64,000 bases of DNA. Origin: a phage. The stretch lies in sequence record PZ445488.1, one strand, 5' to 3'. The notes beneath the pieces were generated by a model. It saw nothing but the letters and a program-made list of their open reading frames with translations. It was not told where the DNA came from and searched no databases. How positions within the stretch are numbered: the stretch's first letter is position 1; every line of letters starts with the position of its first letter. Below, in pieces: positions 8,009 to 44,790 of the stretch. A program made the position numbers and the translations under genes.

Positions 8009-9142
<1,134 letters not shown>

Positions 9143-9188: not shown

Positions 9189-9599
9189 CTACTTTTTCTT
9201 ATGTTGGATATTCCAAGGCGGGTTGAACTTTTTGATAAAAAGTGGTTCTTCAAGGTCCATTGTTGCGATGGTCATTGAACCAAGTTCGTTGGTGACTGAA
9301 AGGTCAAAACATTGGCGGGCCCAGAATTCAACCTTTTTGCCTTGCATTAAGGCATCCAAAATCATAAGTGATTTTCTTGAATCTGAAGTCTGGTCTTTTC
9401 GATTTATGGCTGTTCGATAATAGTTAATGCGTTTCTTTAAATTCTTGGTTTTACCAATATACACAAGTTCGTCATCTATAGCAATAGCGTATATGACATT
9501 TTTCTTATTAGGGGCATCAATGGTTTTAATTGTTGCATCTTCTAATAGCTCCAATTCTATATATTTAATAAAGGAATATTCGGCGGCAATATCTTTCAT
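9189..9599 (-). CDS. denA: endonuclease II (GIY-YIG family)
   Basis: 136 aa as in T4; GIY-YIG-like motif VIYAIAI...LVYIGKTKNLKKRINYY; syntenic. Confidence 0.8.
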   Translation of the reverse strand: MKDIAAEYSFIKYIELELLEDATIKTIDAPNKKNVIYAIAIDDELVYIGKTKNLKKRINYYRTAINRKDQTSDSRKSLMILDALMQGKKVEFWARQCFDLSVTNELGSMTIATMDLEEPLFIKKFNPPWNIQHKKK

Positions 9600-9625: not shown

Positions 9626-10105
9626 TTAGAAATATTTTTTGTATGAATTGATTACATTTTGGTCTACATCATTATCAATTTGTGCGACAAGATAAGAACT
9701 GATTTCAACTTCCTGAGGAGCTGCTTGAACTAAATCAGAGTTCAGATATTCACGAATCCAAGGATACGGATGCTTGGTCGGAGCATCAGTGATTGGGCAT
9801 GGCAAACCACACTGTTTCATACGAGACACGGTCAAGTAATCAACAAAAGCACACATACTCTGCGTATTGATACCTGGACATGTACCATCTTTAAAGAGGT
9901 GTGCAGCCCATTCCTTCTCTTGACTATTTACTTCCATAAAAATGTCAACTGCTTCTTGTTCACATTCTTTAGCAATTTGAACCCACTCATCACCGTCAGT
10001 ACCAGATTGAAGTTGACGGATAATGTACTGAGTACCCTTGAGATGGAGTTGTTCGTCACGAGCAATGAACTTCATAATCTTTGCATTGCCTTCCATGATT
10101 TCCAT
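9626..10105 (-). CDS. nrdB: ribonucleotide reductase small subunit, exon 2 (3' splice site approximate, within about 50 nt upstream of 10105)
   Basis: MEGNAKI...ARDEQLHL aligns with E. coli NrdB EXXH iron-ligand region; ORF-track Met is not a true start. Confidence 0.8.
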   Translation of the reverse strand: MEIMEGNAKIMKFIARDEQLHLKGTQYIIRQLQSGTDGDEWVQIAKECEQEAVDIFMEVNSQEKEWAAHLFKDGTCPGINTQSMCAFVDYLTVSRMKQCGLPCPITDAPTKHPYPWIREYLNSDLVQAAPQEVEISSYLVAQIDNDVDQNVINSYKKYF

Positions 10106-11217
10106 GTTCTTATGGAAGTTAAAGGTACCGTTATGTTCGATTGAGCTCGCTAATTCTCAACCCGTTCTCTTATGAACTGCTACATATTACTATGCAGACC
10201 AGACTATATCACAATCCCAGAGGGATTCTCCCCATTTCGAGTCGCTTGACCCTACGTCCGAAGACTAGTCGTTGAACCTTGCTTTGCAATTGTCGCCGTG
10301 CCATCGTTTATATGTTGATGGTGATAAATCTTTCTTATCACAATATGGACAATTCAATTGAATTCTATTTGGATTTAATTTACATCTGTCATTATGTTTT
10401 AGATAAAATCCAGGACCTTTACCAATGTGACCGCAGAAATCACATGTGATTTCTTTTTGTGCAGGATGGGTCCCGTTCTTAACCATTTCTAATGTTTTTG
10501 CTGATGTTCTTTTCTTATGGCCTTCTGACAAGAAATGATGTGAACCGTCATTTACCCGTTTTGATTGAGTTTCTGACTGCATTTTACCACCGCAAAATAC
10601 ATGAGTACCTTCTTTTATAGCTGCAATATTGCGTTCTTTAACTTTTGCAATATGCTCAGCTTGTTGAAAATTATGTATACCTAATGCAACTCTATTTAAA
10701 TTAGATTTACGCTGTATTTCACCGTCTAAAAGATGAAATGTACCATTTTCTATCTTAGATTTAATAGAGGCAATATTTTTAGCTCGTACTTCAGGGATAT
10801 TAAAAATCTGGATTTCTCTAGATTTTGCGGCTTTAGAAGCTAATTCAGAAATTTCTTCAGGAGAATATTTCATTCTAAGCTTTATAGCATGACAAGCCTG
10901 GTAATCTTTTTGAGCTAAATGTATATCATAATGTTCCTGTATAGAAAGGCACATCAAATTATCTAAATCATTATTTTCACGGTTACCGTCTTTATGATGG
11001 ATTTCGTATGTTCTTCCATCAGAATCTTTAGGTATAGGTCCGTTAGCATCTATCCAAATTTTTCTATAGTTCAATTGTGCATCCTCTTAAAAGTATAATC
11101 ATATTTATATTATACTAATTAAAGGTGCAAGCAAAACCTTGGCTGCTAGTTTTCCTATAAAGGACTTTCCAGCAATTAAAGGAGTTTTCTATAAACGTTA
11201 CCGTTTAAAGGCGCATT
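10106..11217 (-). mobile_element. group I intron in nrdB carrying an HNH homing endonuclease gene (boundaries approximate)
   Basis: conserved NrdB sequence is interrupted for about 1.1 kb; exon 1 ends in a stop right after RFYVSFA; a free-standing HNH ORF lies inside; T4/RB3 have an intron at this gene. Confidence 0.75.
10265..11074 (-). CDS. HNH homing endonuclease (I-TevIII-like), intron-encoded
   Basis: 269 aa; HNH motif EIHHKDGNRENNDLDNLMCLSIQEHYDIH; Cys-rich C-terminal region (CPYCDKK). Confidence 0.8.
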   Translation of the reverse strand: MNYRKIWIDANGPIPKDSDGRTYEIHHKDGNRENNDLDNLMCLSIQEHYDIHLAQKDYQACHAIKLRMKYSPEEISELASKAAKSREIQIFNIPEVRAKNIASIKSKIENGTFHLLDGEIQRKSNLNRVALGIHNFQQAEHIAKVKERNIAAIKEGTHVFCGGKMQSETQSKRVNDGSHHFLSEGHKKRTSAKTLEMVKNGTHPAQKEITCDFCGHIGKGPGFYLKHNDRCKLNPNRIQLNCPYCDKKDLSPSTYKRWHGDNCKARFND

Positions 11218-11895
11218 TTACGCAAAAGATACATAAAAACGAATAGCTTCTAAGGCATTAATAACGTGTAAACAGAGGTAAAGAGATTTCATTAAAGCAC
11301 GTTTAGCTTCGGCTTCTTGTTTAATAGCTCGGTTTAAACGAAAATCAGCATCAGGAGATTCTTTAGCTAGTTCTACAAATTCTTTAGCATTTTCCCATTC
11401 ACGGGTTTTAATCAGAACGTCATCATAATAACGTCCAATGGATTCAGCGCGTTTCATAATAGCTTCATCTAATACAATTTCATCAAATACCTTCGATGGA
11501 TCGGTATAAAGATTTCGCATAATATGAGTATACGAACGAGAGTGAATAGTTTCACTGAATGTCCATGTTGCGACCCATGTATCTAATGAAGGGTCAGAAA
11601 TAAGTGCCATAAGTACCGCAGATGGGGCCCTGCCTTGGATAGAATCTAATAATGATTGATACTTAAGATTGTTTGTAAAGATGTCCTGTTGGAACTGAGG
11701 AAGCTTATTGAACTGCGCGGAGTCCAACATCAAGTTTACCTCTTCTGGGCGCCAGAAAAACGACAATTGCTTTTCAATAAGTTCTTCGAAAACTTTATGA
11801 CGCTGAATATCATACCGTGCGAGGCCAAGACCAGAACCAAAGAACATCGGCTCATTCAAAACATCGACTTGTTGCGTGTTAAAAACTGTACTCAT
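11218..11895 (-). CDS. nrdB: ribonucleotide reductase small subunit, exon 1
   Basis: 225-aa N-terminal part ending ...EAIRFYVSFA followed by in-frame stop inside the intron. Confidence 0.85.
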   Translation of the reverse strand: MSTVFNTQQVDVLNEPMFFGSGLGLARYDIQRHKVFEELIEKQLSFFWRPEEVNLMLDSAQFNKLPQFQQDIFTNNLKYQSLLDSIQGRAPSAVLMALISDPSLDTWVATWTFSETIHSRSYTHIMRNLYTDPSKVFDEIVLDEAIMKRAESIGRYYDDVLIKTREWENAKEFVELAKESPDADFRLNRAIKQEAEAKRALMKSLYLCLHVINALEAIRFYVSFA

Positions 11896-11950
11896 TATAT
11901 TTTCTCACTTAGTTATTAACTCATCCATGAGTAAATTATAATCAAAAGTC

Positions 11951-14206
11951 TTAAAGCTTACAAGCAGAACAATCTTCAGCTTTAGGTGTTTCTAATTCAT
12001 AGTCATCTGTACCTGACCCATCACGAGTGTTATGATAGTAGAGGTTTTTTCCGCCAAAGTACCAGAAGTAAAGCAGATCGTCAAGCATTACCGACATTGG
12101 CACTTTACCTTTCTCAAATACTGCAGGGTCATAGTAAGTATTAGCAGAAGCAGATTGGCACACCCATTTCAACATGATAGCAACTTGAGTCAAATAAGGT
12201 TTATTACCTTTCTTAGCAAGTTTCCACGCGTAGTCGTAAAGACTCATGTTATGTTCGATATTAGGAACAACCTGACGGAAGTTGCCTTCTTTAGATTCTT
12301 TAATACTTACAGGTCCACGAGGTGGTTCTATACCGTTTGTGCTATTTGAGACTTGACTGCTTGATTCACATGGCATGAGAGCACTAAGTGTACTGTTACG
12401 AATTCCGTGTTCTTTGAGTTCAGCTCGAAGTTCTTCCCAGTCACAGACGTAGTTCGGGGCTGCGATTTGGTCAATCTTTTTATTGTACCAGTCGATAGGT
12501 AATTCGCCTCTAGACCATTTAGTGTCTGAATAATACTCACAAGGTCCTTTTTCTTTGGCGAGTTTGATTGAAGCTTTGATAAGGCCATATTGCAATCTCT
12601 CGAACAATTCATGAGTCAAATCGTTAGCGTCTTCATATGAAGCAAAGTTAGAAGCTAACCATGCAGCATAGTTCGTCACACCGACACCGAGATTTCGACG
12701 CTTTTTAGCTTTTAAAGCTTCTGGAACTGGATAATCTTGATAGTCTAACAGGTTATCAAGTGCACGTACTTGTACTTCAGCAAGTTCATTAATTTTATCT
12801 TGGTCTTGCCAATCAAATTTATCTAATACAAAAGCAGATAACGTGCATAAACCAATTTCAGCATCAGGACCATTCACATCATTAGTTGGAATAGCGATTT
12901 CACAACATAAGTTACTCTGTCGAATTGGAGCTTTTTCACGAATAAATGGAGTGTAGTTGTTCGTGTTATCAACAAACTGTGGATAAATTCGAGCAGTACC
13001 AGAACGTTCAGTCATGAACAATTCAAAGAGTTCTAGTGCTTTGATTCTTTTCTTTCTGATTGTTGGGTCTTTTTCAGCTTTCTCATAAAGCTCACGGAAT
13101 TTATCTTGATCTTCAAAGAATGAGTAATATAGTTCGCCTGACATTTCGTGAGGGCTAAATAAAGTAATATAATCATTTTTACCAAGGCGTTCCATCATGA
13201 GGTCATTAATCTGAATTCCATAGTCCATATGTCGAATACGGTTTTCATCCACGCCTTTGTTATTTTTCAGAACTAATAGGTTCTCTACTTCTAAGTGCCA
13301 CATCGGATAATACGCTGTAGCAGCACCACCACGAATACCACCTTGAGAACAAGATTTTACTGCAGTTTGGAAATGTTTCCAGAATGGAATAACACCCGTA
13401 TGTCGAACTTCACCCATACCGATCTTAGAACCTTCTGCACGAAGCATACCAACGTTGATACCGATACCAGCTCGTTTAGAAATATATTCAATAATTGATG
13501 CTGAAGTTTTGTTAATAGATTTTAACGAATCACCGGCTTCAATAACTACACAACTAGAGAACTGGCGAGTTGGAGTACGAGCACCTGCCATAATTGGAGT
13601 AGGCAATGAAACTTGATGAGTAGAAACGGCATCATAAAACCGAATAATATGTTTCAAACGGTCATGAGTTTCGTCTTGATGTAAGGCCATGCCAATAGCC
13701 ATGATAGCAAACTGTGGAGTTTCATAAATCTTCCCAGTTGTTTTATCTTTAACTAGATATTTTTCTTTAAGCTGCATAGCACCAGCGTAAGTCAGATCAA
13801 AATCTCGCTCATGTTTAATCCGAGAATCAAGATAAATGATTTCTTCTGCAGAATATCTAGATAACAACTCAGGACCATATTTGCCTTCATTAACACAATA
13901 CGAGATATGGTCGATAAAAGCAGGAGGTTCAAACTGACCATACACGTCTTTACGAAGCGCAAACATTAATCCTTTAGCGGCAACATATTGATAATCAGGT
14001 TCTTCAACAGAAATCGAGTTAGCTGCAACTTTAATACAAATCTTCTGAATATCTTTGGTGCTCATCCCGTCAACAAGATGGGTCTTAATTTCTTCGTACA
14101 ATTCATATGGGTCGATTTGTGTTCCTTCACATTGCCAAGTTAAGACTTGAATAATTTTCTGTGCATCAAAATTTTGTGATACACCACTGCTCTTAGTTAC
14201 TTGCAT
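11951..14206 (-). CDS. nrdA: ribonucleotide reductase large subunit
   Basis: 751 aa; class Ia RNR features (ATP-cone N-terminus, catalytic NLCCEI...CES region, C-terminal redox-active Cys pair). Confidence 0.95.
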   Translation of the reverse strand: MQVTKSSGVSQNFDAQKIIQVLTWQCEGTQIDPYELYEEIKTHLVDGMSTKDIQKICIKVAANSISVEEPDYQYVAAKGLMFALRKDVYGQFEPPAFIDHISYCVNEGKYGPELLSRYSAEEIIYLDSRIKHERDFDLTYAGAMQLKEKYLVKDKTTGKIYETPQFAIMAIGMALHQDETHDRLKHIIRFYDAVSTHQVSLPTPIMAGARTPTRQFSSCVVIEAGDSLKSINKTSASIIEYISKRAGIGINVGMLRAEGSKIGMGEVRHTGVIPFWKHFQTAVKSCSQGGIRGGAATAYYPMWHLEVENLLVLKNNKGVDENRIRHMDYGIQINDLMMERLGKNDYITLFSPHEMSGELYYSFFEDQDKFRELYEKAEKDPTIRKKRIKALELFELFMTERSGTARIYPQFVDNTNNYTPFIREKAPIRQSNLCCEIAIPTNDVNGPDAEIGLCTLSAFVLDKFDWQDQDKINELAEVQVRALDNLLDYQDYPVPEALKAKKRRNLGVGVTNYAAWLASNFASYEDANDLTHELFERLQYGLIKASIKLAKEKGPCEYYSDTKWSRGELPIDWYNKKIDQIAAPNYVCDWEELRAELKEHGIRNSTLSALMPCESSSQVSNSTNGIEPPRGPVSIKESKEGNFRQVVPNIEHNMSLYDYAWKLAKKGNKPYLTQVAIMLKWVCQSASANTYYDPAVFEKGKVPMSVMLDDLLYFWYFGGKNLYYHNTRDGSGTDDYELETPKAEDCSACKL

Positions 14207-14549: not shown

Positions 14550-15410
14550 TTATACCGCCATTTTAGCTTTGATAGTTGGATGAGATTCGTAATTTTTAAG
14601 AATGAAATCACTCGGATTCATATGCTCTGTTACCCAATGAAGCTGTAATGTCGTGCTCCAATCAGAGAATCCTTCAGGCCAATCAATTTTAAGTTCACAC
14701 AGTTCTTTAGGCTCACGACGAAGAACTTCTTTGCACTGCTCTACATGGTTGCTGTAGATATGCGTATTGCCGCCTGAGAATACTAAATCACCCGGGATAA
14801 GATTACACATCTTAGCCACAATATGCGTCAAGGCAGCGTACGAGGCAATGTTGAACGGCAGGCCCAAGAAAACATCTACACTGCGTTGATACCATTGTAA
14901 ATCAAGATGACCATTACGCACATTAAATTGATAGAACATATGACAAGGAGGAAGAGCCATTTGGTCAATTTCGGCAGGGTTCCAGGCAGAAACAATTTGA
15001 CGACGATCAGTTGGTAATTTTTTAATACGGTCGATTGTTTCAACTAATTGGTCCACACCACCGAAATCACGCCATTGTTTACCATATATAGGACCAAGTT
15101 CACCACTATGATAACCAAGGTCTTTTGCCTGATTTTCGTAATTATCGTCCCAAATAGTTTTACCTTCAATTAGACTACCATGAGTACGAAGACGTAATTC
15201 ATTAACATTAGTAGAACCGGACATGAACCACAGTAACTCGGCAATACAAGCTTTCCATGCTAATTTCTTAGTTGTTACTGCAGGGAATCCTTTAGTCAGG
15301 TCCCAACGTAATTTAGTTCCGAACAGGGCAATTGTTCCTGTGCCTGTACGGTCGTCTGTTTCGTAGCCATTTTCTAGGATATCATTAATCAGGTATTGGT
15401 ATTGTTTCAT
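14550..15410 (-). CDS. td: thymidylate synthase, uninterrupted (no td intron)
   Basis: 286 aa continuous ORF, same length as T4 TS; conserved ThyA regions including the active-site Cys in PCHMFYQF. Confidence 0.95.
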   Translation of the reverse strand: MKQYQYLINDILENGYETDDRTGTGTIALFGTKLRWDLTKGFPAVTTKKLAWKACIAELLWFMSGSTNVNELRLRTHGSLIEGKTIWDDNYENQAKDLGYHSGELGPIYGKQWRDFGGVDQLVETIDRIKKLPTDRRQIVSAWNPAEIDQMALPPCHMFYQFNVRNGHLDLQWYQRSVDVFLGLPFNIASYAALTHIVAKMCNLIPGDLVFSGGNTHIYSNHVEQCKEVLRREPKELCELKIDWPEGFSDWSTTLQLHWVTEHMNPSDFILKNYESHPTIKAKMAV

Positions 15411-25796: not shown

Positions 25797-28700
25797 ATGG
25801 CTACTTTAAAACAAATACAATTTAAAAGAAGCAAAACTGCAGGAGCACGTCCTGCCGCTTCAGTATTAGCCGAAGGTGAATTGGCTATAAACTTAAAAGA
25901 CCGTGTACTTTTTACTAAAGATGACCAAGGAAATATTATTGATCTGGGTTTTGCTAAAGGTGGTAGTATTGACGGGAATGTTATTCATATAGGAAACTAT
26001 AATCAAACTGGTGATTATACTTTAAATGGCGTCTTCACTCAGACTGGTAATTTTAATTTAACTGGTATTGCTCGAGTAACTCGCGATATTATTGCCGCTG
26101 GGCCGATTATGACTGAAGGCGGAGAACTTATTACAAAAAGTTCAGGTACATCACATGTTCGTTTTCATGATTCAGCTGACCGTGAACGTGGAATCATTTT
26201 TTCTCCTGCTAATGATGGATTAACTACACAAGTAATTAATATTAGAGTTCAAGACTACGCAGCTGGTAGCGAAAGCACCTATGCATTTTCAGGCAGTGGA
26301 CAATTTATTTCACCTGAAGTATCGGCATGGAAATCTATGTCAACTCCTCAGATTTTGACTGACAAAGTCATTACAGACGGGAAGAAGGCAGGTGATTATG
26401 ACATCTATTCATTAGCAAATAATAATTCTAATACAGATAAAAATAATTTACGTGTTGTACGTACCGACCCAGCGGCCGCAATGCTCCATGAAATTTGTGA
26501 AAACAACGGCATCAGTTGGTATTCTGGTTCAACCCCTACTGATTATATGTTATCTTTTGCTTATTCCGGCGGTTTTCAAGCAGGCCATTCGATTGCAGTA
26601 GGTATGGAATCAGGGCCTATGACATATTCAACCTTAGGTAAAGGTTCTATTGTTCTTGGGGATAATGATACTGGATTTAAATGGCATCAAGACGGATATT
26701 ATTTCAGCGTTAATAATGGAACAAAAACGTTTTTATTTAATCCTAGCGAAACAACTAGCCTAAGAAAATTTGTAGCTGGATATTCTACTAATGGAACCGA
26801 TTTAACTACTCCTCCAACTGAAAACTATGCTCTTGCTACTGTTGTGACATATCACGATAATAACGCGTTTGGAGATGGTCAGACTCTTTTGGGATATTAT
26901 CAAGGCGGTAACTATCATCACTATTTCCGTGGTAAGGGTACCACAAACATTAATACTCATGGCGGTTTGTTGGTTACTCCTGGTAATATTGATGTTATTG
27001 GCGGTTCTGTTAATATAGATGGTAGAAATAATTCTTCTACACTAATGTTTAGAGGCAACACAACAGGATACAGCTCGGTTGATAATATGGATATTAAAGT
27101 TTGGGGTAATACGTTTGTTGATCCAAGCGGAGGTATCCGTAAAAACATTATGGAAATTTCTGATGCAACTAGCTGGATGAGCTATATTCAAAGACTTACT
27201 ACTGGCGAAGTAGAAATGAACGTTAATGGTTCATTTGAATCATCTGGTGTTACTGCTGGAGATAGAGGAGTTCACACAACAGGTGAAATTTCATCTGGAG
27301 CAGTGAATGCTCTTCGTATTTGGAACGCAGATTATGGAGCCATTTTTAGACGTTCAGAAGGAAGTCTTCATATTATTCCAACTGCTTATGGCGAAGGCAA
27401 AGATGGCGATATTGGTCCACTTCGCCCATTTAGTATGGCTTTAGATACTGGTAAAGTTACTATTCCAGATTTACAATCAAGTTACAATACGTTCGCTGCT
27501 AACGGTTATATTAAATTTGTTGGTCATGGAGCGGGTGCCGGCGGTTATGACATTCAATATGCTCAAGCGGCTCCTATTTTCCAGGAAATTGATGATGATG
27601 CTGTAAGCAAATATTATCCTATTGTTAAACAGAAGTTTTTAAACGGTAAATCTGTTTGGTCTTTAGGTACCGAAATTGAATCAGGTACATTCGTTATTCA
27701 TCATCTGAAAGAAGATGGTTCACAAGGCCATACATCAAGATTTAATATGGATGGTACAGTTAATTTCCCTGATAATGTTCTGGTCGGTGGTGGTGAAGCT
27801 GCTATTGCTCGTAATGGTAATATTTTCTCGGATATTTGGAAAACGTTTACTTCTGCAGGCGACGTAACTAATATTCGCGATGCAATAGCTACTCGTGTTG
27901 CCAAAGAAGGTGACACGATGACAGGTCGTTTAACTCTTAAAACCAACGCAGATGCTGTTGTTATTGATTATCCGGCAGATGAAGCGGGTTATGTTAAGGG
28001 TAAAAAAGGTGGTGCTGATAACTGGTATGTCGGTAACGGTGGTGCTGATGATGGTTTAGCCTTCTGGAGCTTCCAATCCAAAGGCGGTATTAATATTAAC
28101 CCTAATGGCGAGGTTATTCTATCTCCACAGGGCACTAGTATATTCAATATAAACCGCGACCGTATTCATATGAATGGTTCCAACTGGATTGCACATAAAT
28201 CTGGTAAGTGGGGCGACCAATGGGGCTTAGAAGCACCTTATTTCCTTGATTTTGGTAACGTTGGCGAAGACAGTTATTATCCTATCATTAAAGGCCGATC
28301 TTTAATTAGTGGTCAGGGTTATACTACTTCTGTTGAATTAGGCCTGCGTCGTACTCCACAAACATGGGGACAAGCGATAATTCGAGTTGGTAATGCCGAA
28401 GGCGCTGACGGTCCTGTAGGTATTTTCGAATTCCACTCTGACGGTAGATTTTACTCCCCGACTTTAGTCCAGACTCCTGCAATTGGTGTTGGTACTGATA
28501 ATGGACTTGGTGCTCCAAGTATTGCAATCGGTGATAATGACACGGGCTTATCACATGGTGGTGACGGTCGAGTTAATATGGTTGCTAACGGGATTCATAT
28601 TGCATCTTGGTCTAACTCTTACCATACTCATGAAGGTCTTTGGGGTACCAATGGTGCTTTGTGGACTGAAACAGGAAGAGCTATTATTTCTTTTGGCCAT

Positions 28701-29090
28701 TTAGTCCAACAAAGCGACGCCTATTCTACATATGTTCGAGACGTTTATGTTCGTTCTGATATTCGTGTTAAAAAAGACCTTGTTAAATTTGAAAATGCTT
28801 CCGAGAAGCTTTCTAAAATTAACGGTTACACTTATATGCAGAAACGTGGAACTGACGAAGAAGGTAACCAGAAATGGGAACCTAACGCCGGTTTGATAGC
28901 TCAAGAAGTTCAAGCTATTTTACCAGAATTAGTTGAAGGCGACCCTGATGGTGAAGCTTTACTTCGTTTGAACTATAACGGCGTAATTGGTTTAAATACA
29001 GCTGCAATCAATGAGCATACTGCAGAAATTGCAGAACTTAAGTCAGAGATTGAAGAGCTTAAAAATTTAGTTAAATCATTGTTAAAATAA
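25797..29090 (+). CDS. 37: long tail fibre distal subunit gp37 with C-terminal intramolecular-chaperone (peptidase S74-like) domain
   Basis: 1097 aa; C-terminus ...RSDIRVKKDL...INGYTYMQ... then coiled-coil tail resembles autoproteolytic chaperone domains of phage fibres. Confidence 0.85.
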   Translation: MATLKQIQFKRSKTAGARPAASVLAEGELAINLKDRVLFTKDDQGNIIDLGFAKGGSIDGNVIHIGNYNQTGDYTLNGVFTQTGNFNLTGIARVTRDIIAAGPIMTEGGELITKSSGTSHVRFHDSADRERGIIFSPANDGLTTQVINIRVQDYAAGSESTYAFSGSGQFISPEVSAWKSMSTPQILTDKVITDGKKAGDYDIYSLANNNSNTDKNNLRVVRTDPAAAMLHEICENNGISWYSGSTPTDYMLSFAYSGGFQAGHSIAVGMESGPMTYSTLGKGSIVLGDNDTGFKWHQDGYYFSVNNGTKTFLFNPSETTSLRKFVAGYSTNGTDLTTPPTENYALATVVTYHDNNAFGDGQTLLGYYQGGNYHHYFRGKGTTNINTHGGLLVTPGNIDVIGGSVNIDGRNNSSTLMFRGNTTGYSSVDNMDIKVWGNTFVDPSGGIRKNIMEISDATSWMSYIQRLTTGEVEMNVNGSFESSGVTAGDRGVHTTGEISSGAVNALRIWNADYGAIFRRSEGSLHIIPTAYGEGKDGDIGPLRPFSMALDTGKVTIPDLQSSYNTFAANGYIKFVGHGAGAGGYDIQYAQAAPIFQEIDDDAVSKYYPIVKQKFLNGKSVWSLGTEIESGTFVIHHLKEDGSQGHTSRFNMDGTVNFPDNVLVGGGEAAIARNGNIFSDIWKTFTSAGDVTNIRDAIATRVAKEGDTMTGRLTLKTNADAVVIDYPADEAGYVKGKKGGADNWYVGNGGADDGLAFWSFQSKGGININPNGEVILSPQGTSIFNINRDRIHMNGSNWIAHKSGKWGDQWGLEAPYFLDFGNVGEDSYYPIIKGRSLISGQGYTTSVELGLRRTPQTWGQAIIRVGNAEGADGPVGIFEFHSDGRFYSPTLVQTPAIGVGTDNGLGAPSIAIGDNDTGLSHGGDGRVNMVANGIHIASWSNSYHTHEGLWGTNGALWTETGRAIISFGHLVQQSDAYSTYVRDVYVRSDIRVKKDLVKFENASEKLSKINGYTYMQKRGTDEEGNQKWEPNAGLIAQEVQAILPELVEGDPDGEALLRLNYNGVIGLNTAAINEHTAEIAELKSEIEELKNLVKSLLK

Positions 29091-42277: not shown

Positions 42278-42295
42278 AAGCTCCCGAAGGAGCTT
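42278..42295 (-). terminator. tetraloop hairpin overlapping the gene 39 stop codon
   Basis: aagcucc-uucg-ggagcuu in minus-strand RNA. Confidence 0.45.
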
Positions 42296-44114
42296 AGGAC
42301 ATCCATTCTTTACGAAGTTCTGAATCATCACCCAACAACATTTCAAAGAGTTCTTTCCAATTTTCAGGAAGTTTAACTACGTCGTACACAGGGTTCTGAA
42401 TCATTTCACGATACTCTGACTTTTCAAGGGAGCCCAATCCCTTGATGTATCGAATACTATGCTTAGGCAGCGTATCTTTAACTTCTTCATACTCAGCTAC
42501 AGTATAAAACCATTTTTGAGTTTTGCCAATTTGTGCAATAATTACAGGTGTTTTAACAAAGCGAATACGTCCTTGTTCAAACAATTCAGGCCAATTACTA
42601 AAGAAAGCAAGCAAAGCAGGATAAATACTTCCAAGGCCGTCATGATCGGCATCGGTCATAATTGCAATATTACGATAGTTCGTATTCTCTGCCTTTTCAC
42701 CAAGAATAAGACCTGTGATAGCACAGATATCAAAGAGCTCTTTGTTCTTCATCATATCAGCATATGACATACCCCAGCTATTCATCACCTTACCACGTAA
42801 TGGGAATCCGCCGTGTAGTTCACGGTCACGAACATCAATGAGATAACCAATTGCCGAATCACCTTCTGTTAAGAACAATGTCGTATCTGCATCTTTACCA
42901 CATTGGTTAGCTTTAATATGCTTATGAACCTTAGCTTTAGTTGCCTTTTTAGCTGCTTTAGTTTCTGCGGCCTTTTCTGCTGCCAATTTACGAGCTAATG
43001 CTGCTTCAATTATAGGCATTAAAACTGCTTCAGAATTCAAAATATTTTTTGCCAATTTTTTGGTATCTAATTTAATATGCGTCCGAATTTCGCCATAAGG
43101 ACTTGTTAAACGCTCTTTGGTTTGGGAATCAAAACGAAGGTTCTTCATTCCACGAACGAACATTAAGAGAGTGAGACATTCCTTGATGCGCGCTTTAGTC
43201 ACGTCGATTTTATATTTGCGTTTAATAGCCGGAATTAATTCTTCGCAAATGTCGTCCATCACACATTCAATGTGATGACCGCCATTTTTGGTATGGATGT
43301 TATTAACATAAGTTAAATGACGGAAGCCATCTGGTGACCGACCAATGGCAATAGAGCATCCATCTTGTTCTTGAATGACGGTCTCTTCATCAAATTGTTT
43401 AGCAAACTTCTTAAAGTTACCTTTAATCCTTTTGCCATTAAATTTAAATTCAATACCAGGATAAACGACTGCCAATGTTTGGAGCCGGTCTATAGTAATA
43501 TCTTGGTATATTTTTTCAAATTGATTCATTTCAAAATGAGAGAAATCAGGAATAAACTCGACCTTAGTCCCGTTGTTTTTAGACGGCTTAGATTTCCAAG
43601 AAATATTATCAGCATTATTAGAACAATTAACTGTCAATTCGTTTTTACCATCTGAAGTAGTGCCAACAAAAGAGACAGAAAAAATATTTGTTAATGAAGA
43701 ACCGACACCGTTTTGTCCACCCGTAACACGTTCTTTGTCGTCACCAAAGTTGCCACCAGCTTTTGTACGTGTCCACGCCGCAACTGGTCCTGGAATTTCT
43801 TCTCCTTCAGGAGTAATAACTGTTTCTTGAGGAATACCTCGTCCATTATCTTCAACAGTCACTTTATTAGAATTTAAATCAATACTAACAGAAATTTTAT
43901 TAGCATATTTGAAATTGGTTCGAATAGCTTCATCTACCGAGTTGTCAATAATTTCATCAATTAATTTGAGAACACCTGCAACATATTTAACCTTTTTAAA
44001 TTCACCGAATAGGAAACGTTCTTGTTCTTCATTGGCAACACTTCCAATATACATGCCAGGACGCTTCAAACAATGCTCTTTATCAGATAGCATTTCAATT
44101 TTATTATCAATCAT
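42294..44114 (-). CDS. 39: DNA topoisomerase II large subunit, fused 39/60 form; start set at MIDNKIEM
   Basis: 606 aa continuous ORF; GyrB-like ATPase and Toprim regions; longer than T4 gp39 alone, consistent with the unsplit form. Confidence 0.9.
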   Translation of the reverse strand: MIDNKIEMLSDKEHCLKRPGMYIGSVANEEQERFLFGEFKKVKYVAGVLKLIDEIIDNSVDEAIRTNFKYANKISVSIDLNSNKVTVEDNGRGIPQETVITPEGEEIPGPVAAWTRTKAGGNFGDDKERVTGGQNGVGSSLTNIFSVSFVGTTSDGKNELTVNCSNNADNISWKSKPSKNNGTKVEFIPDFSHFEMNQFEKIYQDITIDRLQTLAVVYPGIEFKFNGKRIKGNFKKFAKQFDEETVIQEQDGCSIAIGRSPDGFRHLTYVNNIHTKNGGHHIECVMDDICEELIPAIKRKYKIDVTKARIKECLTLLMFVRGMKNLRFDSQTKERLTSPYGEIRTHIKLDTKKLAKNILNSEAVLMPIIEAALARKLAAEKAAETKAAKKATKAKVHKHIKANQCGKDADTTLFLTEGDSAIGYLIDVRDRELHGGFPLRGKVMNSWGMSYADMMKNKELFDICAITGLILGEKAENTNYRNIAIMTDADHDGLGSIYPALLAFFSNWPELFEQGRIRFVKTPVIIAQIGKTQKWFYTVAEYEEVKDTLPKHSIRYIKGLGSLEKSEYREMIQNPVYDVVKLPENWKELFEMLLGDDSELRKEWMS

Positions 44115-44790
44115 TAGATTTTCTCTCAAATTGCATGACTATATTTTTGTATGAACCTTCCGGAAATCCACGTTTAACGCTTTCTTTAGCAAATTTACCG
44201 ACCTTTGGTTTATCCAATTCTAACCATAATTTATATAAAGAAGATTCATATTCCCATACAGGACTTTTACGATTTTTAAGCCCACACTTTATAAGCGCTT
44301 CCTTTGTATGTTTCTTATTATAAAATGGATTGTTTTTGCCACTCATTGCTTTAGAATGTTCAGGGCGCTTAATTCCATACATCGGATTAAGATCGCCTTT
44401 CTTGATAATTGATTGTAGTTCAATAGTTTCTTCAGAGTGATTGTGTCCATAAAATGGATTTAACTCTTTTGAAACATCCATACCAAAGCACCCATCGACT
44501 GTGGCATAAGACATGTTGAAAAATTTTTCAGATTTAACCACATTATGCAATTTCTGGTAATACAACTCACAAAACGTCGCTTCTTCACGTGTATCAAATT
44601 CGCCAATAATACATGAATCAAATAAATGAGGATTATCTTTTATCTCTTTATCATAAATTTGTTTATATTTTTTCGACTTTACCGTACCATGATAGTAACT
44701 GTTTGTATGTTTATCAAGATAAGTAGACCCTATATAAAACGGTGGCAACTTATCGCCTGTGTATATTGTTAAGTATGTTATGTATTTCAT
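44107..44790 (-). CDS. putative homing endonuclease-like protein (degenerate GIY-YIG N-terminus with NUMOD3-type repeats)
   Basis: 227 aa; N-terminal YLTIYTGDKLPPFYIGST; repeats NPFYGHNHSEETIE, NPMYGIKRPEHSKAMSGKNNPFYNKKHTKEA resemble NUMOD3 modules of Seg/Tev-type endonucleases. Confidence 0.5.
   Translation of the reverse strand: MKYITYLTIYTGDKLPPFYIGSTYLDKHTNSYYHGTVKSKKYKQIYDKEIKDNPHLFDSCIIGEFDTREEATFCELYYQKLHNVVKSEKFFNMSYATVDGCFGMDVSKELNPFYGHNHSEETIELQSIIKKGDLNPMYGIKRPEHSKAMSGKNNPFYNKKHTKEALIKCGLKNRKSPVWEYESSLYKLWLELDKPKVGKFAKESVKRGFPEGSYKNIVMQFERKSND

Follow-up and report, generated by a model that had tools for sequence, protein, structure and literature searches.

A full-length RB3-type group I intron encoding I-TevIII in the nrdB gene of a Mosigvirus-type coliphage

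Introduction

Does an nrdB gene whose reading frame stops midway and is resumed about 1.1 kb further downstream encode one protein or two? The question is raised by the phage sequence record PZ445488.1, of which we analysed a window of 64,000 nt; all coordinates given here refer to this window. On its minus strand, the frame of NrdB, the small subunit of ribonucleotide reductase, runs into a TAA stop (11220..11218) after the residues ...EAIRFYVSFA and resumes ~1.1 kb downstream. In the list of open reading frames (ORFs) of the window, the gene is represented by two entries. A 225-aa ORF (11218..11895, minus strand) resembles the N-terminal part of NrdB and ends ...EAIRFYVSFA-stop, and a 159-aa ORF (9626..10105, minus strand) resembles its C-terminal part. 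A first-pass annotation of the locus had proposed that nrdB is split by a group I intron, that this intron carries a full-length HNH endonuclease and that the neighbouring td gene is free of introns.

The nrdB intron of the T-even phages and its homing have been textbook material since 1986-2007. We find that the proposed interpretation is correct and that both the element and the phenomenon are already known. The window almost certainly derives from a T4-like coliphage of the Mosigvirus type, in whose nrdB the classical group I intron of the T-even phages resides, full length and of the RB3 type.

Exons and splice sites of nrdB

The key to the interrupted frame is the apparent TAA codon, the T of which (11220) is the final base of exon 1. 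Exon 1 comprises 676 nt (11220..11895, minus strand) starting from the ATG at 11895, and its extent follows from the placement of the splice site and from alignment with R2 of E. coli. It ends with the U that is the partner of a G in P1. The group I intron comprises 1091 nt (10129..11219, minus strand) and is delimited by its identity to RB3 and RB7, by the insertion relative to PECP20 and by a partial match to RF00028. Exon 2 of 503 nt including the stop codon (9626..10128, minus strand) begins with GUACCUUUAAC. The ATG at 10105 is the first in-frame start available to an ORF finder and not the start of exon 2, which lies at 10128.

Read along the minus strand, exon 1 ends with ...UCU UUU GCG U and the intron opens with AAAAUGCGCC. 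The 3' end of the intron reads ...CGAACAUAACG (...CAUAACG) with the terminal G at 10129, directly followed by GUACCUUUAAC. Joining the U of exon 1 to the GU of exon 2 creates the codon UGU for cysteine, and the peptide ...FYVSFA-C-TFNFHKNMEIMEGNAK becomes part of an open frame of 392 aa. Across the ligated junction, the mRNA is predicted to read ...UUUGCGU-GUACCUUU (GCGU-GUACC).

The first-pass annotation had set the interruption at 10106-11217 and had considered the exact splice sites not fixable by eye. While the interruption itself stands, its ends deviated by 2 nt and 23 nt from the correct positions 11219..10129. Nor are the sites elusive. Only the placement GCGT/...G/GTACC gives the GCGTGTACC-type sequence that intron-less alleles contain uninterrupted, and none of the neighbouring placements does, so that alignment with such alleles fixes the splice sites unambiguously. 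The flanks TCTTTTGCGT and GTACCTTTAA are identical in the window, RB3, T4, U5 and FL31, and the same flanks delimit the insert in Bp7 and BYEP01. In T4 they enclose exactly 598 nt, the size implied by the annotated T4 nrdB join. The intron boundaries are the same as in RB3, FL31, U5 and BYEP01 and are equivalent to those of T4.

Comparison with intron-less NrdB, which had been suggested as a check, yields an exact insertion and a colinear product. A 240-nt synthetic junction query aligns in one piece to intron-less phages with ~93% identity, and the NrdB proteins of the intron-less phages PECP20 and APCEc01 both have the 392 aa of the spliced window product. In a blastn alignment of the window with 50 kb of PECP20, the closest intron-less relative, a clean insertion of 1093 nt is found exactly here, and the split pattern is therefore not a matter of chance. 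The spliced protein aligns to E. coli R2 with E=5e-126, with NALEAIRFYVSFAC/TFNF opposite NALEAIRFYVSFACSFAF (NALEAIRFYVSFAC-SFAF) and gapless at the junction. It also matches the Pfam family Ribonuc_red_sm in a single stretch. Judged by these alignments, the gene encodes NrdB/R2, the beta subunit of class Ia ribonucleotide reductase, and its product remains colinear with intron-less NrdB where the exons meet.

Identity and fold of the intron

Rfam finds no match in the whole window at its gathering thresholds. A permissive scan returns RF00028 (Intron_gpI) at 10180..10420 on the minus strand with 33.9 bits, short of the gathering score of 50; the E-value of this match is 1.5e-6 when 1.5 kb are scanned and 6.5e-5 over the whole window. 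In the alignment, J6/7, P7, P3', P8 and P9 are placed correctly, and the 5' half of the model is forced onto the ORF. The low score is caused by this ORF, which splits the core by inserting 785 nt between the two strands of P6a. A naturally ORF-less allele of the phage BYEP01 (304 nt; L005 842-1145), which originated by deletion between two ACAATTG repeats, reaches 68.7 bits with RF00028 (E=2.5e-16) and exceeds the gathering score of 50. From the ORF-deleted intron of the window it differs by one base in J2/3, one stem base of the hairpin preceding the ORF and a 2-nt loop indel. Its segment matching window 10129..10287 is identical and contributes to the 68.7-bit match. The suggested modelling with Rfam recovers the core in the ORF-less BYEP01 allele, and in the window itself it aligns the 3' half with a score below gathering.

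When the ORF-deleted intron is folded without constraints for minimum free energy (MFE), P2-P6a (with P3), P7.1, P7.2, P8, P9, P9.1 and P9.2 are recovered. P1, formed by GCGU of the exon and GCGC of the intron (nt 6-9) with a U.G pair at the splice site, was added by hand. The P7 pseudoknot GACUA/UAGUC was likewise drawn by hand, and both contain standard pairs only. The U.G pair of P1 at the 5' splice site is invariant in 8 homologues, and at the other end of the intron the terminal omega-G stands directly before exon 2 (...CAUAACG/GUACC). The MFE fold contains the hairpins P7.1 (GUC-UUCG-GAC) and P7.2 (GGGUC-AAGC-GACUC) between P7 and P3', reportedly the hallmark of subgroup IA, the group of the T4 introns (Michel & Westhof 1990). 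By this classification, the intron would be of the IA2-type.

The two halves of the ribozyme core lie at the ends of the intron. The 5' half (11117..11219, minus strand) holds the internal guide sequence, that is the 3' strand of P1 (GCGC), P2 with its GUAA loop, the 5' strand of P3, P4, P5 and the 5' strands of P6 and P6a; it is defined by the MFE fold, the hand-drawn helices and compensatory changes. The 3' half (10129..10287, minus strand) comprises the 3' strands of P6a and P6, J6/7, P7, P7.1, P7.2, the 3' strand of P3, P8, the 3' strand of P7, P9, P9.1, P9.2 and the terminal G. It is defined by the Rfam alignment, by BYEP01 and by compensation in P9.

The structural alignment contains 8 distinct alleles, namely those of the window, RB3, T4, BYEP01, SG1, U5, UTK0003 and HY03. 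In the drawn structure 99.6% of the pair cells are standard, compared to 38-45% if the partners are slid by 1-3 columns. Compensatory double changes occur in five pairs, two of them in P2 and one each in P5, the hairpin before the ORF and P9. P3, P4, P7 and P8 are invariant in the 8 alleles and so carry no covariation information. Sequence and predicted fold identify the insert as the canonical group I intron of T-even nrdB genes, here in the full-length form known from RB3. The proposal of a group I intron in nrdB is borne out by the insertion site shared with RB3 and T4, by the P1-P9.2 core and by the RF00028 signal.

A further phage deserves mention with respect to this fold. In the Pseudoalteromonas phage pYD6-A (JF974296.1), a stretch of 87 nt (L010 2501-2587) shows 86.5% identity to the 3'-terminal P9-P9.2 segment. 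The surrounding coding sequence (CDS) is annotated as a join of two pieces, and an 'ATPase' ORF is embedded in it. The similarity suggests a related group I intron in this marine N4-like phage. Since an Rfam scan of the pYD6-A locus gave no match at E<=1e-3, it was kept out of the covariation analysis.

The I-TevIII endonuclease and its predicted control

The intron houses the gene of the homing endonuclease I-TevIII (10265..11074, minus strand), which encodes 269 aa and is recognised by Pfam HNH_3 and by its identity to RB3. Its start codon is UUG, as annotated for RB3, at a distance of 8 nt from the preceding AAGAGG, and its last codons together with the UAG stop lie within P6', J6/7 and the 5' strand of P7. 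The HNH_3 match covers residues 4-48 with 48.6 bits (E=6e-13). Compared to the RB3 protein, 267 of the 269 residues are identical, the two changes being D23Y and D185G.

I-TevIII of RB3, an enzyme of experimentally shown activity, acts as a dimer, and mutagenesis has established that catalysis requires H26, H27, N39 and H48 (Robbins et al. 2007, PMC1865063). Zinc is bound by two CX2CX12-13HX3C fingers through C211/C214 and C242/C245 (PMC1865063). All four catalytic residues are present in the window protein, as are both zinc fingers (residues 211-231 and 242-263). An inactivating effect of D23Y, which is located beside the HNH histidines, was considered and rejected since Y23 occurs in five other homologues. 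Tyrosine is common to FL31, Bp7, U5, HY03 and UTK0003, and D23 of RB3 is the outlier. Residue 185 is part of a protease-sensitive linker and varies among homologues (D, H, E, G). We conclude that the ORF represents an intact full-length I-TevIII, presumably in its active form. The full-length HNH endonuclease of the first-pass annotation is, by its Pfam domain and its near-identity to RB3, this enzyme.

Two further searches concern this protein. No solved relative was found at E<=0.01 in a sequence search of the PDB. A Pfam match to FlgM (anti-sigma-28) at residues 74-114 (10733..10855), with 26.2 bits against a cut-off of 25, falls into a protease-sensitive linker and is treated as spurious.

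The start of the ORF is embedded in a hairpin predicted to sequester the ribosome-binding site (11068..11128, minus strand; intron nt 92-152), as judged from a computed fold and one compensatory pair. Its stability of -14.3 kcal/mol corresponds to z = -4.4 and was equalled by none of 200 shuffled sequences. In the stem, CCUUU pairs with the AAGAGG Shine-Dalgarno sequence (11088..11083), and the apical loop carries TATAAATA (11109..11102), the T4 late-promoter consensus. The same arrangement of hairpin and late promoter has been described for the endonucleases of T4 introns (PMC2988022). By analogy, control through a late promoter and a hairpin at the ribosome-binding site may also operate in the present phage. 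In the introns of U5 and SG1, the hairpin loop is devoid of the TATAAATA box.

Backbone and donor tract

The genome around the intron is of a different type than the intron itself. The segment from nrdA to rnh is 96-97.6% identical to the Mosigvirus-type coliphages PECP20, p000v, APCEc01 and JK45, and the nrdB region shows 98.3% identity to the Mosigvirus FL31 compared to 92% to the Tequatrovirus RB3. The intron is 99.7% identical to RB3 and RB7, with 3 differences in 1091 nt. Taken over their whole length, the nrdB exons are ~83% identical to RB3 and 93% identical to the intron-less PECP20. To map the transition, each exon position that differs between PECP20 and RB3 was scored in the window. 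Between -195 and +32, 65 of the 67 informative sites are RB3-like, and beyond these limits nearly all sites are PECP20-like. The RB3-type tract (10097..11415, minus strand; outer limits 10088 and 11419) consists of the intron and its exon flanks, 196 nt in exon 1 and 32 nt in exon 2.

The donor tract includes the G at -2 that takes part in P1 pairing and that is A in intron-less Mosigvirus alleles. It also replaces 26 residues of a hypervariable NrdB segment, residues 173-200 (11296..11379). This segment is almost completely different among PECP20, APCEc01 and RB3/window, and part of it lies opposite a deletion in E. coli R2.

Repair of the double-strand break in homing leaves a short donor tract around the cut site, which is known as co-conversion (PMC2790892, PMC2988022). 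For I-TevIII the cut site is at -14/-16 (PMC1865063). In the intron-less nrdB of the PECP20 type, this site deviates from the RB3 exon at positions -13, -7, -1, +5 and +8. The RB3-type tract appears to be such a co-conversion footprint, left when the intron recently homed from a Tequatrovirus-like donor, and I-TevIII cleavage would account for its origin. FL31 carries nearly the same RB3-type tract with ends at -199/-214 and +23. The homing event is therefore probably common to other Mosigvirus-type phages or has recurred in them.

Beyond that, the transferred exon sequence could have a role of its own. Homing across genera would have put ~230 nt of donor exon into a Mosigvirus nrdB, and with it the hypervariable segment, which is assigned to the NrdB surface. 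If such co-converted segments were functionally relevant, for example for the fit between the R1 and R2 subunits or for escape from host or competitor factors, the intron would act as a vehicle of adaptive exchange of host-gene sequence and would not merely be a selfish passenger. We regard this as an unlikely proposition.

Alternative explanations

Several points weigh against a splicing, self-mobile full-length intron acquired by homing. The window sequence as it is stays below the Rfam gathering score owing to the 785-nt insertion in P6a, and the covariation support, although consistent throughout, is modest, coming from only 8 close relatives. D185G (window 10521) is private to I-TevIII of the window with respect to RB3 and FL31. 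The C>A exchange at intron nt 30 in J2/3 (window 11190) is private as well, with C in 7/7 other alleles. Splicing and endonuclease activity are deduced from near-identity to RB3 and T4. Finally, the donor tract could also have arisen by ordinary recombination between co-infecting phages.

The intron might splice and yet not be self-mobile, similar to T4, if I-TevIII were inactive, perhaps through D185G or through a regulatory change, and the intron persisted only by vertical descent or trans-homing. The T4 copy is indeed immobile through deletion of the ORF (PMC1865063, PMC2790892), and both D185G and the J2/3 substitution are found in the window only. I-TevIII of the window is, however, full length with the catalytic and zinc residues defined by mutagenesis intact, the linker residue 185 is variable in homologues, and just 3 nt separate the intron from the active RB3 intron across 1091 nt. 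The tight co-conversion tract at the I-TevIII cleavage region argues for recent activity, and we consider loss of self-mobility quite unlikely. Arrival by general recombination, or in trans by a free-standing endonuclease of the donor of the mobE or hef type, is very unlikely. It has a precedent in MobE, which mobilises the defective T4 intron in trans (PMC2790892), and RB3 and U5 carry mobE or hef beside nrdB. Between nrdA and nrdB of the window, in contrast, neither gene is present, and nrdB is of the backbone type in its 5' part, the region nicked by MobE; both observations make trans-homing by mobE unlikely. In addition, donor sequence is confined to a short stretch (-195 to +32) that extends to both sides of the I-TevIII cut site at -14/-16.

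The remaining alternative takes the two reading frames at face value. Here, nrdB would truly be split by a free-standing HNH gene, and two polypeptides would assemble without splicing. Genes split by insertion of a homing endonuclease gene do exist in T4-like phages, as T4 genes 39/60 and nrdA of Aeh1 illustrate, and many automatically annotated records of related phages show two 'ribonucleotide reductase beta' CDSs together with a homing endonuclease. In the window, however, the sequences on either side of the ORF make up a complete group I core, with a terminal G and with a U.G pair marking the 5' splice site. The end of exon 1 interrupts a helix-forming motif (FYVSFAC), a start at the first in-frame ATG of 'exon 2' costs 7 conserved residues, and for the homologous intron of T4 the annotation gives a spliced join. 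We see practically no likelihood for a truly split gene, and an intein was considered and rejected along with it.

Proposed mechanism

For the spliced, self-mobile intron that we prefer, the following course of events can be proposed. Judging from its homologues in T4 and RB3, the intron RNA would fold into the P1-P9.2 ribozyme and splice. A guanosine cofactor would attack after the exon-1 U of the U.G pair in P1 (GCGU/GCGC), and the freed exon would then attack after the terminal G to give the message for ...SFA-C-TFNF..., the 392-aa NrdB. The P6a loop houses the I-TevIII gene, whose ORF extends into P6, J6/7 and P7. In early read-through pre-mRNA, the hairpin would sequester the ribosome-binding site, and transcripts started from the late promoter TATAAATA in its loop would be free of the 5' arm, so that the protein may be made late. 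I-TevIII, an HNH endonuclease with two C-terminal zinc fingers, would cleave an intron-less genome, and repair from an intron-containing genome would copy the intron together with flanking exon into the cut genome.

Neighbouring genes and other features of the window

In the ORF list, the minus strand shows the T4-type order denA-nrdB-nrdA-td-frd, with denA at 9189..9599 and rnlA at 8009..9133, both on the minus strand. Directly upstream of nrdB lies nrdA (11951..14206, minus strand). The spacer of 55 nt between the two genes (11896..11950) contains neither mobE, as found in T4 and RB3, nor hef, as found in U5; in T4, RB3 and U5 this place is taken by mobE, nrdB.1 or hef. A small ORF is located between nrdA and td.

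The thymidylate synthase gene td (14550..15410, minus strand) is an uninterrupted ORF of 286 aa that matches Pfam Thymidylat_synt end to end (1-266/266, E=4e-97). Neither a td intron nor a second intron was detected by permissive Rfam search of the whole window and by colinearity with PECP20, and at E<=0.01 Rfam reports just one group I signal in the 64 kb, that of the nrdB intron. The claim that td is intron-free holds. That a phage has only part of the three-intron set of T4 is no surprise; PECP20, the closest relative, has neither the nrdB nor the td intron.

Elsewhere in the window, a 227-aa ORF (44107..44790, minus strand), GIY-YIG-like at its N-terminus (FYIGSTY) and matched three times by Pfam NUMOD3, represents a seg-like free-standing homing endonuclease gene. 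It is situated immediately upstream of the gene of the topoisomerase large subunit (42294..44129) with a 23-nt overlap at the start, and 674 nt of it (44115..44788) are missing from PECP20. The only other stretch that cannot be aligned to PECP20 comprises ~500 nt in the long-tail-fibre region (28454..28961), where PECP20 has ~450 nt of unrelated sequence. This difference is the usual hypervariability of receptor binding.

Annotation and significance

The correct annotation of nrdB is one spliced gene on the minus strand, join(11895..11220, 10128..9626), and the ORF in its intron should be named I-TevIII. Many related GenBank records instead contain two 'beta subunit' fragments and a hypothetical protein. 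The clean co-conversion tract provides a natural example of intron homing between phage genera. Beyond correct annotation, the locus is of little importance.

The intron is widespread. In the phage collection, 228 records match it and 85 carry >=80% of it, while the remaining matching records are mostly T4-like or other deletion derivatives. The full-length and presumably active intron thus circulates in at least 85 database phages, and many of the carriers are already annotated with I-TevIII or 'intron-associated endonuclease 3'. Reduced forms occur as well: the I-TevIII frame of U5 is broken after 65 codons (L007), and the intron of SG1 measures 420 nt (L006).

Comparison with known systems

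The closest counterpart is the nrdB intron of RB3 with its full-length I-TevIII, reportedly described by Eddy and Gold in 1991. Both introns share the insertion site, the length of 1091 nt, the UUG start, the 269-aa ORF and the layout of promoter and hairpin. They differ in their surroundings. RB3 has a Tequatrovirus backbone and the window one of the Mosigvirus type, with exons outside the tract being ~80-85% identical, and RB3 carries mobE upstream of nrdB where the window has none. Within the intron, the exchange at nt 30 and D185G are private to the window, and residue 23 is D in RB3 and Y in the window.

The T4 nrdB intron has the same splice sites and the same ribozyme core, with 8 mismatches over 598 shared positions. 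It lacks, however, positions 210-700 of the window intron, by which the HNH domain is lost and the frame shifted, and it is immobile unless mobE acts in trans (PMC2790892). The same intron in a similar backbone is found in FL31, a20, NRG-P0074, JK45 and other Mosigvirus-type phages, in which the nrdB region of 2351 nt is 94-98% identical with few point differences. The T4 introns in td and nrdD, encoding I-TevI and I-TevII, are elements of this class too: group IA2-type introns of phages, residing in genes of nucleotide metabolism, with an endonuclease ORF looped out from the core. They also share the control by late promoter and hairpin at the ribosome-binding site (PMC2988022). Unlike the HNH enzyme I-TevIII, I-TevI and I-TevII are GIY-YIG enzymes that act as monomers.

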